Assembly: GCF_057098645.1 (NCBI RefSeq)
Contig: NZ_CM169472.1
Reading direction: 5' to 3' (one strand)
DNA length: 64,000 bases
The position numbers were made by a program, and so were the translations under genes. Within the stretch, counting starts at the first letter, position 1; each line of letters starts with the position of its first letter. Shown here in pieces: positions 626 to 8,213 of this stretch. The notes below the pieces were generated by a model. The model was not told where the DNA came from and ran no database searches. It saw nothing but the letters and a program-made list of their open reading frames with translations.

Positions 626-1696
626 TTATTTGATTTCAATTTTGTCCCACTCCCTGCCTCTGTCATCACGATACTGTGATGCCATGGTGTCCGACTTATG
701 CCCGAGAAGATGTTGAGCAAACTTATCGCTTATCTGCTTCTCATAGAGTCTTGCAGACAAACTGCGCAACTCGTGAAAGGTAGGCGGATCCCCTTCGAAG
801 GAAAGACCTGATGCTTTTCGTGCGCGCATAAAATACCTTGATACTGTGCCGGATGAAAGCGGTTCACGACGAGTAGATGCAATTATGGTTTCTCCGCCAA
901 GAATCTCTTTGCATTTATCAAGTGTTTCCTTCATTGATATCCCGAGAGCATCAACATGCAATGTTGTAGGGATGGCAATTTTTACGCCTGTTTTGCTTTG
1001 TTCGACATAAAGATATCCATCTACGATATCAGACCACTTCATTTCGCATAAATCACCAACTCGCTGCCCGGTAACAACAGCCAGTTCCATTGCAAGTCTG
1101 AGCCAACATGGTGATGATTCTGCTGCTTGATAAATTTTCAGGTATTCGTCAGCCGTAAGTCTTGATCTCCTTACCTCTGATTTTGCTGCGCGAGTGGCAG
1201 CGACCGGGTTTGTTGTTATATGGCCTTCAGCTATTGCCTCTCGGAATGCATCGCTCAGTGTTGATCTGATTAACTTGGCTGACGCCGCCTTGCCCTCGTC
1301 TATGTATCCATTGAGCATTGCCGCAATTTCTTTTGTGGTGATGTCTTCAAGTGGAGCATCAGGCAGCCCCCTCCTTATTGCTTTAATTTTGCTCATGTAA
1401 TTTATGAGTGTCTTCTGCTTGATTCCTCTGCTGGCGAGGATTTTTTCGTAGCGATCAAGCCATGAATGTAACGTAACAGAATTATCACTGTTGATTCTCG
1501 CTGTCAGAGGCTTGTGTTTGTGTCCTGAAAATAACTCAATATTGGCCTGTATTGCTTCAGTGATTGCTATCCTCCTGTCTCGGCCTAAACCAAACTCTTT
1601 ACCCGTCCTTGGGTCCCTGTAGCAGTAATATCCATTGTTTCTTATATAAAGGTTAGGGGGTAAATCCCGGCGCTCATGACTTCGCCTTCTTCCCAT
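626..1696 (-). CDS. int: Integrase (lambda Int, tyrosine recombinase), 356 aa
   Basis: Track ORF; protein MGRRRSHERRDLPPNLYIRNNGYYCYRDPRTGKEF... matches lambda Int as I recall it; adjacent to attL. Confidence 0.97.
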   Translation of the reverse strand: MGRRRSHERRDLPPNLYIRNNGYYCYRDPRTGKEFGLGRDRRIAITEAIQANIELFSGHKHKPLTARINSDNSVTLHSWLDRYEKILASRGIKQKTLINYMSKIKAIRRGLPDAPLEDITTKEIAAMLNGYIDEGKAASAKLIRSTLSDAFREAIAEGHITTNPVAATRAAKSEVRRSRLTADEYLKIYQAAESSPCWLRLAMELAVVTGQRVGDLCEMKWSDIVDGYLYVEQSKTGVKIAIPTTLHVDALGISMKETLDKCKEILGGETIIASTRREPLSSGTVSRYFMRARKASGLSFEGDPPTFHELRSLSARLYEKQISDKFAQHLLGHKSDTMASQYRDDRGREWDKIEIK

Positions 1697-1892
1697 TTCT
1701 GATCCTCTTCAAAAGGCTACCTGTTACTGGTCGATTTAAGTCAACCTTTACCGCTGATTCGTGGAACAGATACTCTCTTCCATCCTTAACCGGAGGAGGG
1801 AATATCCTGCATTCGCGCACCCATCGACGAACTGTTTCAAGGCTTCTTGGGCGTCGCTGGCGTGCGTTCCACTCCTGAAGTGTCAAGTACAT
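1674..1892 (-). CDS. xis: Excisionase (lambda Xis), 72 aa
   Basis: Track ORF MYLTLQEWNARQRRPRSLETVRRWVRECRIFPPPVKDGREYLFHESAVKVDL...; overlaps the int start as in lambda. Confidence 0.95.
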   Translation of the reverse strand: MYLTLQEWNARQRRPRSLETVRRWVRECRIFPPPVKDGREYLFHESAVKVDLNRPVTGSLLKRIRNGKKAKS

Positions 1893-2099: not shown

Positions 2100-2341
2100 T
2101 TATCATCTCCATAAAACAAAACCCGCCGTAGCGAGTTCAGATAAAAGAAATCCTCGTCAGTGCGAGGATGCTGTTCATTGCTGCTATACACTTTTTTGCT
2201 CTCAACGTAAGCGGTAGCTCATTCTGTTGGGTTGGTGCAGTTGCTTTTAGGAAATGCTATTTACCCCTTAAACGTCGGCTGAAAGAGCTAAAATCCATGC
2301 AAAAAATTTACGCAATTTTGTGTATTATTGTGCAGTAAGTA

Positions 2342-2944
2342 ATGAGCTATTTTCTGCGCAAAAAATGGATGGTAAATTTGTCCGGGGCAGGAAAAATTTT
2401 ATGGGCGCTAAACATGAAAAAAGATTCGTATCCTTATTTGATTTGCATGACAGTTTCAGGCCTGATCTTTATTTTCCTTTTCTTCTGGTGGCGGGCAGAT
2501 ATTTACAGGGTCACGTTTCTTAATCAGAGTATATCCCACTATTACATTCTGTTTAGCATGGGAATAGCTTTTCTGTTATCTCTGTTTTGGGTTAAGAAGG
2601 GGATAGTAAAACAAAGCGGCTGGAAGAGTCTGTCAGCATACCTTAAGGTTTATGCAGGGATGTGCATATTTGCTGGATTTTTTCTGATTATACCCCTTAC
2701 AACACTAACTTATTTTTTGCCTGGAGAGACATCGTCTTATGTTGCACCGTATCGGTATACTTCCGGTAGTTCAAAAAGTTGTTCTGGAGCTGAGGTGGAT
2801 GACCCCGATCTACATGAGAATATTCGCATTTGCTATCCGTATGGCAATTATGAGTACGATAATATTATCTATGTTGAAAAGAAAATTAATACATTAGGTG
2901 CGGTAGTAACATATGCACAGACCGCGCGTGATGATACTGAATGA
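2342..2944 (+). CDS. Hypothetical integral membrane protein (moron, opposite to the early-left operon); start uncertain (2342 or 2414)
   Basis: Track ORF with 3-4 hydrophobic segments (LICMTVSGLIFIFLFFWW, ILFSMGIAFLLSLFWV, MCIFAGFFLIIPLTTLTYFL); AT-rich; AT-rich upstream region; hairpin downstream. Confidence 0.6.
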   Translation: MSYFLRKKWMVNLSGAGKILWALNMKKDSYPYLICMTVSGLIFIFLFFWWRADIYRVTFLNQSISHYYILFSMGIAFLLSLFWVKKGIVKQSGWKSLSAYLKVYAGMCIFAGFFLIIPLTTLTYFLPGETSSYVAPYRYTSGSSKSCSGAEVDDPDLHENIRICYPYGNYEYDNIIYVEKKINTLGAVVTYAQTARDDTE

Positions 2945-2979
2945 GATAGTATATAGCGGGCAAGTTTTAGTTAATTTAT

Positions 2980-3005
2980 CGAGGTAATATAATTTACCTC
3001 GACTC
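2980..3005 (+). terminator. Putative terminator hairpin (cgaggtaa-loop-ttacctcg) after the membrane-protein moron
   Basis: 8-bp inverted repeat followed by a T-rich tract. Confidence 0.35.
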
Positions 3006-3154
3006 GTTTATTCTGGTATTAATATTTCGCTTTACGATCGATTTTTATCTGATGATATCATGCGGTTTTCATATACTGACTTACTGTCTTTTCTCCGTTA
3101 GCGATTTTCTCCTGCTCAGCGATGATTTTATCTTTGGCTTCTAGTTAATTTCGC

Positions 3155-3376
3155 TCACTTCGAACCTCTCTGTTTACTGATAAGTTCCAGATCCTCCTGG
3201 CAACTTGCACAAGTCCGACAACCCTGAACGGCCAGGCGTCTTCGCTCATCTATGGGATCGCCACACTCACAACAATGAGTGGCAGATATAGCCTGGTGGT
3301 TCAGGCGGCGCATTTTTATTGCTGTGTTGCGCTGTAATTCTTCAATTTCTGATGCTGAATCAATGATGTCTGCCAT
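3155..3376 (-). CDS. DksA/TraR-family C4 zinc-finger protein, 73 aa
   Basis: Track ORF with CxxC...CxxC (CCECGDPIDERRRLAVQGCRTCASC), typical of phage TraR/DksA-like proteins. Confidence 0.75.
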   Translation of the reverse strand: MADIIDSASEIEELQRNTAIKMRRLNHQAISATHCCECGDPIDERRRLAVQGCRTCASCQEDLELISKQRGSK

Positions 3377-3474
3377 CTTCCATTAATCCCTGAATTGTTG
3401 GTTAATACGCTTGAGGGTGAATGCGAACAATAAAAAAGGAGCCTGTAGCTCCCTGATGATTTTGCTTTTCATGC

Positions 3475-3690
3475 TCACCGTTCCTTAAAGACGCCGTTTA
3501 ACATGCCGATCGCCAGGCTTAAATGAGTCGGTGTGAATCCCATCAGCGTTACCGTTTCGCGGTGCTTCTTCAGTACGCTACGGCAAATGTCATCGACGTT
3601 TTTATCCGGAAACTGCTGTCTGGCTTTTTTGATTTCAGAATTAGCCTGACGGGCAATACTGCGAAGGGCGTTTTCTTGCTGAGGTGTCAT
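3475..3690 (-). CDS. Hypothetical early-left protein (~71 aa; probable start MTPQQENALRS...)
   Basis: Track ORF 3475-3756 trimmed to an internal Met; same strand and operon as exo/bet. Confidence 0.5.
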   Translation of the reverse strand: MTPQQENALRSIARQANSEIKKARQQFPDKNVDDICRSVLKKHRETVTLMGFTPTHLSLAIGMLNGVFKER

Positions 3691-3766
3691 TGAACAAGTC
3701 CCATGTCGGCAAGCATAAGCACACAGAATATGAAGCCCGCTGCCAGAAAAATGCATTCAGTGGTTG

Positions 3767-3958
3767 TCATACCAGGTCTCTCTCATCTGCTTCTGCTTTC
3801 GCCACCATCATTTCCAGCTTTTGCGAAAGGGATGTGGCTAACGTATGAAATTCTTCGTCTGTTTCTACTGGTATTGGCACAAACCTGACTCCAATTTGAG
3901 CAAGGCTATGTGCCATCTCAATACTCGTTCTTAACTCAACAGGAGATGCTTTGTGCAT
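3767..3958 (-). CDS. Hypothetical early-left protein, 63 aa
   Basis: Track [40 protein letters not shown]...; colinear with the lambda small ORFs upstream of exo. Confidence 0.5.
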   Translation of the reverse strand: MHKASPVELRTSIEMAHSLAQIGVRFVPIPVETDEEFHTLATSLSQKLEMMVAKAEADERDLV

Positions 3959-4119
3959 ATCGCCTCCCGTTTATTATTTATCTCCTCAGCCAGCCGCTGG
4001 GCTTTCAGCGGATTTCGGATAACAGAAAGGCCGGGAAATACCCAGCCTCGCTTCGTAACGGAGTAGACGAAAGTGATCGTGCCTACGCGGATATTATCGT
4101 GAGGATGCTTCATCGCCAT
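3931..4119 (-). CDS. Hypothetical early-left protein, 62 aa
   Basis: Track [34 protein letters not shown]...; ends right next to the exo start. Confidence 0.5.
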
Positions 4120-4790
4120 TGCTCCCCAAATACAAAACCAATTTCAGCCAGTGCCTCGTCCATTTTTTCGATGAACTCCGGCACCATCTCGTCAAAACCC
4201 GCCATGTACTTTTCATCCCGCTCAACCACGACATAATGCAGGCCTTCACGCTTCATACGCGGGTCATAGTTGGCAAAGTACCAGGCATCTTTTCGCGTCA
4301 CCCACATGCTGTACTGCACCTGGGCCATGTAAGCCGACTTTATGGCCTCGAAACCACCGAGCCTGAACTTCATGAAATCCCGGGAGGTAAACGGGCATTT
4401 CAGCTCAAGGCCGTTGCCGTCACTGCATAAACCATCGGGAGAGCAGGCGGTGCGCATACTTTCGTCGCGATAGATGATCGGGGATTCAGTAACATTCACG
4501 CCGGAAGTGAATTCAAACAGGGTTCTGGCGTCGTTCTCGTACTGTTTTCCCCAGGCCAGCGCCTTAGCATTAACTTCCGGAGCCACACCGGTGCAAACCT
4601 CAGCCAGCAGGGTGTGGAAGTAGGACATTTTCATGTCAGGCCACTTCTTTCCTGAGCGGGGCTTTGCTATCACGTTGTGAACTTCTGAAGCGGTGATGAC
4701 GCCGAGCCGTAATTTGTGCCATGCATCATCCCCCTGTTCGACAGCTCTCACGTCGATCCCGGTACGCTGCAGGATAATGTCCGGTGTCAT
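4110..4790 (-). CDS. exo: Lambda exonuclease (Red-alpha), 226 aa
   Basis: Track [68 protein letters not shown]... matches lambda Exo as I recall it. Confidence 0.97.
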
Positions 4791-5572
4791 GCTGCCACCT
4801 TCTGCTCAGTGGCTTTCTGTTTCAGGAATCCAAGAGCTTTCACTGCTTCGGCCTGTGTCAGTTCTGACGATGCGCGAATGTCGCGGCGAAATATCTGGGA
4901 ACAGAGCGGCAATAAGTCGTCATCCCATGTTTTATCCAGGGCGATTAGCAGAGTGTTAATCTCCTGCATGGTTTCATCGTTAACCGGAGTGATGTCGCGT
5001 TCCGGCTGGCGTTCTGCAGTGTATGCAGTATTTTCGACAATGCGCTCGGCTTCATCCTTGTCATAGATACCAGCAAATCCGAAGGCCAGACGGGCACACT
5101 GAATCATGGCTTTATGCCGTAACATCCGTTTAGGATGCGACTGCCACGGCCCCGTGATTTCTCTGCCTTCGCGGGTTTTGAATGGTTCGCGGCGGCATTC
5201 ATCCATCCATTCGGTAACGCAGATCGGATGATTACGGTCCTTGCGGTAAATCCGGCATGTACAGGATTCATTGTCCTGCTCAAAGTCCATGCCATCAAAC
5301 TGCTGGTTTTCATTGATGATGCGGGACCAGCCATCAACGCCCACCACCGGAACGATGCCGTTCTGCTTATCAGGGAAGGCGTAAATTTCTTTCGTCCACG
5401 GATTAAGGCCGTACTGGTTGGCGACGATCAACAATGCGATGAACTGCGCATCGCTGGCATCGCCTTTAAATGCCGTCTGGCGAAGAGTGGTGATCAGTTC
5501 CTGTGGGTCGACAGAATCCATGCCGACACGTTCAGCCAGCTTCCCTGCCAGCGTTGCGAGTGCTGTACTCAT
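4787..5572 (-). CDS. bet: Lambda Bet (Red-beta single-strand annealing protein), 261 aa
   Basis: Track [69 protein letters not shown]... matches lambda Bet. Confidence 0.97.
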
Positions 5573-5577
5573 CCGTT

Positions 5578-5994
5578 TTATACCTCTGAATCAATATCAA
5601 CCTGATGGTGAGCAATGGTTTCAACCATGTACCGGATGTGTTCTGCCATGCGCTCCTGAAACTCAACATCGTCATCAAACGCACGGGTAATGGCTTTTTT
5701 GCTGGCCCCGTGGCGTTGCAAATGACCGATGCATAGCGATTCAAACAGGTGCTGGGGCAGGCCTTTTTCCATGTCGTCTGCCAGTTCTGCCTCTTTCTCT
5801 TCACGGGCTATCTGCTGGTAGTGACGCGCCCAGCTCTGAGCCTCAAGACGATCCTGAATGTAATAAGCGTTCATGGCCGAACTCCTGAAATAGCTGTGAA
5901 AATATCGCCCGCGAAATGCCGGGCTGATTAGGAAAACAGGAAAGGGGGTTAGTGAATGCTTTTGCTTGATCTCAGTTTCAGTATTAATATCCAT
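5578..5994 (-). CDS. gam: Lambda Gam (RecBCD inhibitor), 138 aa long form
   Basis: Track [64 protein letters not shown]... matches lambda Gam. Confidence 0.95.
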
Positions 5995-6092: not shown

Positions 6093-6225
6093 TTTTTGGG
6101 ACTCCTGGCTGATTAAGTATGTCGATAAGGCGTTTCCATCCGTCACGTAATTTACGGGTGATTCGTTCAAGTAAAGATTCGGAAGGGCAGCCAGCAACAG
6201 GCCACCCTGCAATGGCATATTGCAT
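6061..6225 (-). CDS. cIII: CIII (FtsH inhibitor that stabilises CII), 54 aa
   Basis: Manual translation [54 protein letters not shown]; overlaps kil in another frame as in lambda. Confidence 0.85.
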   Translation of the reverse strand: MQYAIAGWPVAGCPSESLLERITRKLRDGWKRLIDILNQPGVPKNGSNNYGYPD

Positions 6226-6297
6226 GGTGTGCTCCTTATTTATACATAACGAAAAACGCCTCGAGTGAAGCGTAATTGGTATGCGGTAACGCCGCGC

Positions 6298-6854: not shown

Positions 6855-7736
6855 TTATGACCACTTTTTGTTTGGGTTTCGTTGGTGAGCGTGGTTTACA
6901 GGATTATTTGATATACCCCATAACTCTGACTCGCTTATCTCTACACGAGAGAAAGACCTGCTTTCTTTCAGTTCTTTTATAAACCTAGAACCTAAGATGA
7001 CATCTATTGTACCAGAAAGTTCTTGTAAAAGATCTTTGTTTTTTCTGAGGAAGAAAATATCTTCTTTATATTTAATTTTTACATAGAATTTATTCTGTAT
7101 TTTTAATATATCAAAGCATGGCAGATATCTATATCCCTCATATTTTCGCCACTGCTTAACAATTATAACATCTTTTTCATTTACTGCATTAATCAGCCCA
7201 AGACCAAGTACAGGTATGAATATTCTATTGTCTGCCGAAAGCGTACAATTATCACCACCAGGCAAATATGTATAAATCATGTCGGAATTTTTATACGCAT
7301 CAACGAATGCACGTAAGAAGCGTACATATTTTTGCCATCCGTTTATACCGAATTTACCATATAAGTATTCTTTATTTGTTAGAAGAAAACTATTTGTATC
7401 AGGATCCTTATCTACAGACCTGTCGATAAGATCTCCAACTACGTTTACAAAGTCAAAGACAGAGTTTAATAAGAACAATTGTCTTTCAGTAGGGCGAATT
7501 TCAATTATGTAGCCAGGATGAAGACGATATTGCATCTGCTTACGAAGTATACCGAACGCTTGGGTCCGAGCATCTGAAAGCAACTTCTTGTCGCCATCGC
7601 CGTGAGCATTGTTTCTAATAAAACTGATATAATTTGCTAATTTTTCAGCCTCTTTTTTGTGTTTTTTTCGCTCTGATGCTGAGTCTATTGGTTTTGGTAT
7701 GGACTTGTAATCAATCTTCTTCATTACGTACCTCAT
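6855..7736 (-). CDS. Uncharacterised 293-aa protein at the N-ea10 (ral/sieB) position; candidate defence or anti-defence moron
   Basis: Track ORF; start overlaps the N stop (ATGA); a second in-frame Met (MKKIDYK) has a GAGG Shine-Dalgarno; strongly AT-rich; no motif I can recognise. Confidence 0.8.
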   Translation of the reverse strand: MRYVMKKIDYKSIPKPIDSASERKKHKKEAEKLANYISFIRNNAHGDGDKKLLSDARTQAFGILRKQMQYRLHPGYIIEIRPTERQLFLLNSVFDFVNVVGDLIDRSVDKDPDTNSFLLTNKEYLYGKFGINGWQKYVRFLRAFVDAYKNSDMIYTYLPGGDNCTLSADNRIFIPVLGLGLINAVNEKDVIIVKQWRKYEGYRYLPCFDILKIQNKFYVKIKYKEDIFFLRKNKDLLQELSGTIDVILGSRFIKELKESRSFSRVEISESELWGISNNPVNHAHQRNPNKKWS

Positions 7737-8056
7737 GCCAATGGAATGGATTCCCCTTTAACCTTTTGTCTTCCTTGACAAGTTATACCGAACTCACCTG
7801 GCTTGCTATACCAAACTCGATGATTCTTGCGCTCAATACGTTGCAGGTTGCTTTCAATCTGTTCGTGGTATTCAGCCAGCACCGTAAGGTCTATCGGATT
7901 CAGTGCGCTTTCTACTCGTGATTTCGGTTTGCGATTCAGCGAGAGAATAGGGCGGTTAACTGGTTTAGCGCTTACCCCAACCAACAGGGGATTTGCTGCT
8001 TTCCATTGAGCCTGTTTCTCTGCGCGACGTTCGCGGCGGCGTGTTTGTGCATCCAT
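7733..8056 (-). CDS. N: Antiterminator N, 107 aa
   Basis: Track ORF 7733-8188 trimmed to MDAQTRRRERRAEKQAQWKAANPLLVGVSAKPVNRPILSLNRKPKSRVESALNPIDLTVLAEYH..., matching lambda N; the longer frame would overlap nutL. Confidence 0.93.
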   Translation of the reverse strand: MDAQTRRRERRAEKQAQWKAANPLLVGVSAKPVNRPILSLNRKPKSRVESALNPIDLTVLAEYHEQIESNLQRIERKNHRVWYSKPGEFGITCQGRQKVKGESIPLA

Positions 8057-8213
8057 CTGGATTCTCCTGTCAGTTAGCTTTGGTTGTGTGTGGGAGTCGT
8101 AGTCCTGAACGAAAACACCCCGCAATGGCACATTGGCAGCTAATCCGGATTCGCACTTCCGGCCAATGCTTCGTTTCGTATCACACACACCAAAGCCTTC
8201 TGCTTTGAATGCT

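Follow-up and report, generated by a model that had tools for sequence, protein, structure and literature searches.

The lambdoid prophage examined here carries, between xis and exo, a gene for a predicted membrane protein that reads against its neighbors, and comparison across phages gives good support to the view that this gene is a mobile single-gene cargo cassette, or moron, lying antisense in the pL operon. The prophage belongs to a stretch of 64,000 nucleotides (NCBI RefSeq assembly GCF_057098645.1, contig NZ_CM169472.1), which we call the window, and is integrated at att-lambda, adjoining ybhC. The gene as such is already known, as it is annotated as a hypothetical or putative membrane protein and its family is counted in a published table. 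Our hypothesis is that it is a prophage cargo gene that acts at the envelope.

A 434-type insert carries a single gene against the pL operon

The genes at the left end of the prophage share one orientation. A lambda-type int (626..1696), with which the window opens, xis (1674..1892), ORF55, a TraR/DksA zinc-finger gene (3155..3376), exo (4110..4790), bet and gam all lie on the - strand. From ORF55 on one side to the zinc-finger gene on the other, the sole long ORF is on the + strand at 2342..2944 and measures 200 aa in the ORF listing of the window, and no - strand ORF of at least 40 aa occurs in 2191-3155. The original prediction had described an AT-rich + strand ORF of about 200 aa located between xis and exo and transcribed against the pL genes. 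The location and orientation were borne out, all neighbors being on the - strand, and so was the composition, with a GC content of 0.34-0.41 over 2251-3150 against 0.45-0.55 in the flanks, and of 0.39 for the coding sequence of the window copy against 0.46 flanking it. The ORF is present at the length described, but the conserved protein within it is shorter, at 176 aa.

When the window was compared with lambda by blastn, homology was limited to 1700-2169 and 3143-3699, indicating that the gene is absent from lambda. The gap, 2170..3142, is a 434-type insert that contains the whole cassette, and lambda carries ea8.5 and ea22 in its place. The gene shows two features of morons in the Hendrix/Juhala sense: it is found between conserved flanks in some related phages but not in others, and its composition is unlike that of the surrounding genome, the GC content of the coding sequence being lower than that of the flanks. 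At the left edge of the insert, and outside the cassette, are the hairpins of the leftward terminator tL4 (2119..2169, - strand; t-L4 in M60848), to which a terminator-like scan gave matches at 2150-2169 and 2119-2138. Rfam gave no match in the region. A 56-aa ORF at 2168..2338, annotated as a membrane protein in 434, has no family match and is not conserved upstream of the homologues, and is therefore probably not a gene.

The same region is found in other lambdoid phages, at 100% identity in phage 2B8, 99.7% in phage 434 and 98% in mEp332. The gene corresponds to CPT_434_36 (‘putative membrane protein’) in 434, to ECs_0804 in prophage Sp3 of O157:H7 Sakai and to XSB40999 in mEp332. These are all the same gene, with 99-100% identity and the same slot between ORF55 and the TraR/DksA zinc-finger gene, and the sole difference from the window copy is the annotated start codon. 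In 2B8 the gene has been annotated as small fragments. Sp3 is a decayed prophage whose int and bet are pseudogenes, and its ECs_0804 is intact. At least 80% of window positions 2100-3150 is present in 904 of 5,426 complete E. coli genomes, which is about one in six and includes O157:H7. The morons of 434 have been described as unlike those of lambda (434 genome paper, PMC9119081). Across the literature that we searched, ECs0804 is mentioned in no paper, and neither experiments nor transcript data turned up for the gene; we found no reference to the protein in the announcement of the 434 genome, in a review of superinfection exclusion, in the paper on P22 SieA or in the searched supplementary files of the Vassallo et al. 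selection.

The conserved product has 176 residues and is under purifying selection

Homologues at 42-78% identity, found in Salmonella, Enterobacter, Klebsiella, Cedecea and other E. coli elements, have lengths of 169-180 aa and, the lambdoid copies apart, all share a start that aligns with M25 of the 200-aa form, at window position 2414. In the Salmonella copies (L004/L005) and in one E. coli P2-like copy (L024), the frame 5′ of M25 is closed by stop codons. Together, the shared start and the upstream stop codons indicate that the conserved product is the 176-aa protein encoded, with its stop codon, at 2414..2944 on the + strand. The N-terminal 24 codons of the reported ORF (2342..2413) show no conservation outside the lambdoid copies and are probably not translated, given that they overlap a candidate promoter. 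Annotation of the start codon differs between records, with a TTG at window position 2378 chosen in 434 and an ATG at 2342 in RefSeq. Pairwise comparison with three homologues gave dN/dS values of 0.08-0.14, demonstrating purifying selection and arguing that the ORF did not arise by chance, and conservation extends over the full length of the protein in at least six genera.

The gene and its upstream sequence recur in P2-like prophages

The gene also recurs, along with approximately 130 bp of upstream sequence, in another phage type, the P2-like prophages. Taken with the insertion relative to lambda and the low GC content, this recurrence upholds the prediction of a self-contained, opposite-strand moron. 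We found homologues in eight distinct P2-like loci, which came from Salmonella (two protein variants), E. coli, Enterobacter hormaechei, Klebsiella michiganensis and one metagenome. In each of them the homologue lies in the interval from Q (portal) to A (replication) and converges with the latter, which we take to be the slot and orientation of old in P2. The likeness to the P2 genes old and tin (and fun), which mediate exclusion by lysogenic conversion, is one of place: the nuclease Old and the Tin protein are both soluble, and old/tin have no sequence or architectural relation to the window protein.

The gpA-gpQ interval of P2-like prophages, the site of old/tin, has been shown experimentally to be an anti-phage hotspot (Rousset et al., 2022, PMC9122126). 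System #4 in Table S5B of that study is a single protein without a Pfam domain, described as ‘3 TM’ and recorded in 470 occurrences (PMC9122126). BLASTP aligned the window protein with the system #4 protein over its full length (52% identity, 168 aa, E = 3e-57). The two are thus members of the same protein family and both are single-gene, while the window copy differs in residing in a lambdoid prophage, between xis and exo, and not between gpA and gpQ. The sequence motifs of system #4 are absent from the table of cloned systems in the same work (PMC9122126), suggesting that the family was catalogued but apparently not tested there. Cargo in the P2 hotspot is not confined to defense, as it also includes partition systems and cytolethal distending toxin (PMC9122126).

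Phage-borne copies are lower in GC than their flanks, in most cases at 0.38-0.44 against 0.53-0.55, and most P2-like copies fall at 0.38-0.42. Copies on the chromosome, outside prophages, are found in Enterobacter mori, Klebsiella sp. and Cedecea. Those of Enterobacter mori and Klebsiella sp. are GC-ameliorated (GC 0.52-0.55, GC3 0.65-0.74) and adjoin LysR regulators and GGDEF or PTS genes, which shows that the function of the gene is not tied to a prophage. No conserved partner gene was found across the contexts examined, which argues that the gene works alone.

A predicted inner-membrane protein with a periplasmic beta domain

We next consider the protein, which is predicted to reside in the inner membrane. 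The 3-4 transmembrane (TM) segments originally predicted can be narrowed to three, a count on which hydropathy and structural modeling agree, and its designation as a membrane protein stands as a prediction. Hydropathy gave three hydrophobic segments, at approximately residues 7-28, 39-61 and 73-102 (176-aa numbering). An AlphaFold2 model built from a 35-sequence alignment (pLDDT 93.2, pTM 0.80) contains three long helices, a short strand in loop 1 (residues 34-36) and a five-strand C-terminal beta domain. Predicted TM helix 1 (2432..2497) corresponds to model helix 6-29, TM helix 2 (2528..2596) to model helix 38-61 and TM helix 3 (2630..2719) to model helix 71-101. The beta domain, predicted to be periplasmic, spans residues 103-171 (2720..2926), with model strands at 105-171. 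Cys123 (2780-2782) and Cys140 (2831-2833), both in the beta domain, are invariant in 35 of 35 aligned sequences, which suggests that they form a disulfide bond.

A topology with the N-terminus inside and the C-terminus outside, placing loop 1 and the beta domain in the periplasm, is predicted with high confidence. It is in keeping with the basic stretches at the N-terminus (MKK) and in loop 2 (KKGIVKQSGWKS..K), with the acidic character of the C-domain (11 D/E against 6 K/R) and with the invariant cysteine pair. The mean frequency of the top residue is 0.58 in the C-domain and 0.52 in loop 1, and is lowest, at 0.26, in the cytoplasmic loop 2, so that the functional surface is most likely periplasmic. 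The TM helices contain no polar or charged residues lining a pore.

Homology and structure searches, which had been proposed as a check on the prediction, recovered only uncharacterized relatives and one weak S-2TMbeta match. There was no match in NCBIfam or in Pfam, the latter searched with the single sequence and with the 35-sequence alignment; PADLOC-DB 2.0 returned 0 families at E ≤1, and PDB sequence profiles returned nothing below E = 0.3 for either the full protein or the C-domain. The only PHROG matched was PHROG 1416, of unknown function (E = 2e-50), over residues 113-200 of the 200-aa form, that is, the C-terminal 88, and none of the PHROGs with an exclusion annotation matched at E ≤1. 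Foldseek against AFDB50 retrieved uncharacterized Enterobacterales and Pseudomonas proteins, and the S-2TMbeta match, a ‘SMODS-associating 2TM beta-strand rich effector’, appeared at rank 38 (E = 2.5e-7, TM-score 0.52). The family is small: searches with a profile against 5.8 billion proteins and with phmmer against 1.84 billion representatives yielded 53 representatives at 50% clustering among 1.84 billion proteins, none of which is named or has a Pfam domain.

A candidate promoter is conserved with the gene

A generic sigma-70 scan called no promoter upstream of the ORF. Conservation across phages nonetheless points to a candidate promoter at 2350..2378 on the + strand, which that scan missed, consisting of a -35-like element, TTTTCT (2350-2355), and, after a 17-nt spacer, an extended -10 element, TGgTAAATT (2370-2378). 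The pattern TTTTCn, 17-18 nt, TGnTAAnTT occurs at the same distance from the ATG in seven of eight aligned upstream regions, namely those of the window, of the P2-like loci L024, L004, L005, L010 and L025, and of Cedecea L026; the eighth, L013, has TACAAT at the -10 position. From this conservation we infer that the cassette probably has its own promoter of the sigma-70 extended -10 type, with a predicted transcription start near 2385, about 7 nt past the -10 element. A start at that position would leave M25 as the sole in-frame start codon of the ORF on the mRNA, which fits the protein alignment.

The DNA of the window begins to resemble that of the Salmonella P2-like copies 96-133 bp 5′ of the ATG at 2414. 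Compared with the E. coli P2-like copy, the window shows 84% identity in the 70 nt preceding the ATG, whereas only about 40% of synonymous sites in the coding sequence are identical in the same pair (pS = 0.60), suggesting constraint on the leader and promoter.

Further upstream, an A-tract (2301-2306) precedes phased 10-bp direct repeats of the form TTGTGYAnnn at 2318-2327 and 2328-2337, with a degenerate copy at 2307-2316. Two or three copies of the TTGTGCA repeat are also found upstream of the homologues in the P2-like loci L004, L005, L024 and L025. It is possible that 2301..2337 constitutes a regulator site or a UP-like site.

A tentative role in superinfection exclusion

Reasoning from context only, we propose that the protein mediates superinfection exclusion by interfering with genome passage over the periplasm and inner membrane, a reading that we regard as plausible, if somewhat short of probable. 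The sigma-70 extended -10 promoter of the cassette would drive synthesis of the 176-aa protein. Since the gene reads against pL and pL is repressed in the lysogen, shutoff of pL by the repressor would leave the gene free for expression there. The three helices would span the inner membrane, leaving the short N-terminus and loop 2, which is basic, on the cytoplasmic side and loop 1 and the disulfide-bonded five-strand beta domain (about 65 residues) on the periplasmic side. The periplasmic face may then bind a component that incoming phages need to move their DNA across the periplasm and inner membrane, and genome entry would thereby be blocked. That component could be a tape-measure protein, an ejection protein or a host inner-membrane protein bound on its periplasmic side.

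We were led to this proposal by the periplasmic position of the conserved face and the absence of a sensor or partner gene, by the occurrence of the gene as cargo in two temperate phage types that are unrelated, in one of them at a validated defense hotspot, and by the fact that P22 SieA, HK97 gp15 and T4 Imm, which are of like size and location, act in this way. Counted against it are the lack of homology to any named exclusion or defense family, the mixed cargo of the hotspot, the GC-ameliorated chromosomal copies that lie outside prophages, the weakness of the -35-like element and the weak Shine-Dalgarno sequence ahead of M25 in the E. coli copies.

P22 SieA is a protein of about 165 aa with three predicted TM helices, located in the inner membrane, and is encoded by a single gene with its own promoter that is expressed from the prophage and blocks DNA delivery (PMC10461980). 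The window protein is similar in being a predicted inner-membrane protein of the ~160-aa class, at 176 aa, with three TM helices. Unlike the window protein, SieA lacks a C-terminal beta domain and the cysteine pair, and it conserves a motif, FnRYPnEAnnFNK, on what is predicted to be the cytoplasmic side, whereas in the window protein it is the periplasmic side that is conserved. Homology between the two was rejected, as hhalign gave a probability of 0.3% and the motif is missing from the window protein. HK97 gp15, T4 Imm and the Cor proteins of phi80 and N15 are small envelope proteins, encoded by prophages or phages, that act before or at genome entry by blocking DNA entry or receptors, and the HK97 gene is a moron. 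The mode of action that we propose is like theirs, and they presumably differ from the window protein in TM number and domains.

A broader claim, which we consider possible and on balance doubtful, is that these proteins form a new family of single-gene, periplasm-facing exclusion or defense proteins that is unrelated to SieA, Imm, gp15 and Cor and moves between lambdoid and P2-like phages as a promoter-plus-gene cassette, maybe under host-factor control through the TTGTGCA repeats. If the protein is an exclusion or defense factor, a function would be provided for a cargo gene that ranks among the commonest still unassigned in E. coli prophages, number 4 in the P2 hotspot, and for a gene carried by the classic phage 434 and by the O157:H7 prophage Sp3. 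The protein would then represent a structurally new type among genome-entry blockers, combining three TM helices with a disulfide-bonded periplasmic beta domain, and would bear on how therapeutic phages against E. coli and Salmonella are chosen. There is no sign so far of an unexpected mechanism, and the fold is unmatched. The proposal is easy to test because the cassette is a single unit of 0.7 kb with its own candidate promoter.

Other explanations for the gene

The main rival to exclusion is that the cargo gene protects the envelope or benefits the host in some way that has no connection with phage entry, which we judge to be rather unlikely while taking it seriously. The protein could provide orphan immunity against toxins that act on the membrane or in the periplasm, such as pore-forming colicins, CDI or T6SS effectors. 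Another possibility, broadly a form of lysogenic conversion, is that it alters the activity of an envelope sensor or transporter. Immunity proteins for pore-forming colicins are usually small inner-membrane proteins with 3-4 TM segments, and a role of this kind would be consistent with the stand-alone, GC-ameliorated chromosomal copies of Enterobacter mori and Klebsiella sp., which lie outside any prophage, with the Cedecea copy at a non-prophage locus, with the non-defense cargo of the P2 hotspot and with a conserved face in the periplasm. However, none of the contexts examined has a gene for a toxin or for its delivery next to the homologue, and phage-borne copies predominate in E. coli and Salmonella, where they occupy loci enriched for anti-phage genes.

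We also considered that the protein may be an abortive-infection effector, a RexB- or Cap15-like membrane disruptor that kills or arrests the infected cell. Cap15 and the other S-2TMbeta effectors of CBASS systems have TM helices followed by a small beta-rich domain, as does the window protein, and the rank-38 Foldseek match is to a protein of this kind; transmembrane effectors are, in addition, common among defense systems (PMC9122126). Several results nevertheless make such an effector improbable. Neither Pfam S_2TMBeta nor the solved Cap15 beta-barrel gave a match, no CD-NTase (SMODS) neighbor was found in 10 distinct contexts, and a sensor or cyclase partner is absent from every one. With three TM helices and a cysteine pair, the beta domain would be periplasmic and so out of reach of a cytoplasmic nucleotide signal. 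The cytoplasmic loop is, moreover, the least conserved part of the protein, and the helices are without the polar or charged residues that would line a pore.

Quite improbable is a gene that is silent in the repressed prophage and serves the cycle of the phage itself, either switched on transiently by CII through TTGT-N6-TTGT during establishment of lysogeny or expressed lytically. The 434 record labels 2318-2331 as ‘CII consensus’ (TTGY-N6-TTGY). The window has TTGT-N6-TTGT at these positions and AGCTAT 13 nt downstream of the second tetrad, which is the spacing in lambda pRE, and a CII-family regulator is encoded by this prophage type. However, the repeats accompany the gene in P2-like phages, and like blocks are found upstream in the Cedecea chromosome; lambda-type CII is not expected in either. 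Both tetrads are TTGT, whereas lambda pRE, pI and paQ carry TTGC; the -10 element needed for a CII-type promoter is not conserved, being AGTTGT in L004/L005; and about 6 chance occurrences of TTGY-N6-TTGY are expected by calculation in a 48-kb genome. The presence of the repeats in P2-like phages, the TTGT tetrads and the unconserved -10 make a CII-specific role of the repeats unlikely.

That the ORF is spurious or a decaying, functionless remnant is scarcely credible: the hypothetical-only annotation, the fragments called in 2B8 and the restriction of the PHROG 1416 match to the C-terminal 88 residues would be in keeping with it, but the dN/dS of 0.08-0.14, the spread over at least six genera with invariant cysteines, the pLDDT of 93 and the occurrence of at least 80% of the 1,051-bp region around it in 904 complete E. 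coli genomes stand against it, and the selection and conservation data exclude a non-functional ORF.

Sequences flanking the gene

The hairpin originally placed about 40 bp past the stop codon is present at 2979..3002 on the + strand, with a 9-bp stem that begins 35 nt past the stop, and was picked up by the terminator-like scan. As a terminator it would be a weak one: its T-run is poor (CUCGUUUAUU), its RNA fold is marginally better than that of shuffled sequences (z = -1.8), and it shows no conservation in the P2-like loci. On the 5′ side, the TTGTGCA repeats were compared with the boxes of CRP, OmpR, CpxR, PhoP, MarA and CytR and matched none of these. One of the repeats matches a relaxed DnaA box, which we note as a lead only.

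Sequences immediately upstream of the membrane-protein gene

The membrane-protein gene (2342..2944, +) is preceded by an A-tract and then two to three phased 10-bp direct repeats of the form TTGTGCAnnn (2301..2337). Lambdoid and P2-like prophages alike conserve these repeats alongside the gene, and they lie upstream of the homologues at L004, L005, L024 and L025. The record of the lambdoid phage 434 labels them as a CII site.

Two small open reading frames have been annotated around the start of the gene. The first, a 56-aa ORF (2168..2338, +), carries the name CPT_434_35 in the phage 434 annotation, which calls it another ‘putative membrane protein’. It is probably not a real gene, as PHROG and PADLOC searches both returned no match for it, no counterpart is present upstream of the homologues elsewhere, and it overlaps the hairpins of the leftward terminator tL4. 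The second, ‘ORF-22+’ (2401..2523, +), comes from a 1990 GenBank fragment (M60848) and is read in the +2 frame with respect to the main ORF. Its start is the ATG at 2401, which is out of frame with the conserved protein, has an AGGA 8 nt to its 5’ side, and would be the first AUG of an mRNA beginning near 2385, as predicted. This ATG is found in the E. coli copies and is absent from the Salmonella copies. ‘ORF-22+’ may be a short upstream ORF that overlaps the main one, or may mean nothing.

Homologues in other settings

At the P2 hotspot of a P2-like prophage of Klebsiella michiganensis (L013-L015; locus 2281..5623, -), the neighbours of the homologue encode an AAA_16 (STAND-like) protein of 790 aa and another protein of 279 aa; these two probably form a defence system of their own in the same hotspot. 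The chromosomal homologues of Enterobacter mori (L007-L009) and Klebsiella sp. (L016-L018) are GC-ameliorated and adjoin LysR-type regulators, which suggests that the family has a host version that has been resident for a long time; in E. mori, the regulator precedes the homologue by 16 nt on the same strand. A further copy, ECs_0804, is intact in the decayed prophage Sp3 of O157:H7 Sakai (L021; record 891124-929709), which has lost its immunity region and retains int and bet only as pseudogenes. Sp3 also carries lpxR and nleB2-1 as cargo.

Other elements of the window

The gene for the N-like antiterminator (7733..8188, -) is directly followed by a very AT-rich 293-aa ORF (6855..7736, -; GC about 0.30-0.35). 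Its product matches PHROG 12139, a family of unknown function (E = 1.6e-205), and a PADLOC search with it gave no matches. The 20 C-terminal residues (..HAHQRNPNKKWS) match the C-terminal end of the Nun-like transcription termination/exclusion factor of HK022 (phrog_5632, E = 7e-5). The product may belong to the Nun type of exclusion protein and carry a large additional N-terminal domain.

Rfam identified two ALIL pseudoknots, the frameshift element of IS3-family elements, at 10434..10550 (-) and 21715..21831 (+). The two pseudoknots have identical scores and indicate that the prophage contains two IS copies in opposite orientation; similarity to the lambdoid phage 2B8 breaks off around both. 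Rfam also identified a Moco riboswitch (51858..52002, +); if this is the one preceding the host moa operon, the prophage would end before about 51.8 kb, in agreement with its location at att-lambda. Further Rfam matches are the lambda cIII thermoregulator (6180..6238, -) and, in the prophage late region, the Hfq-binding sRNA isrC (25745..25867, -).
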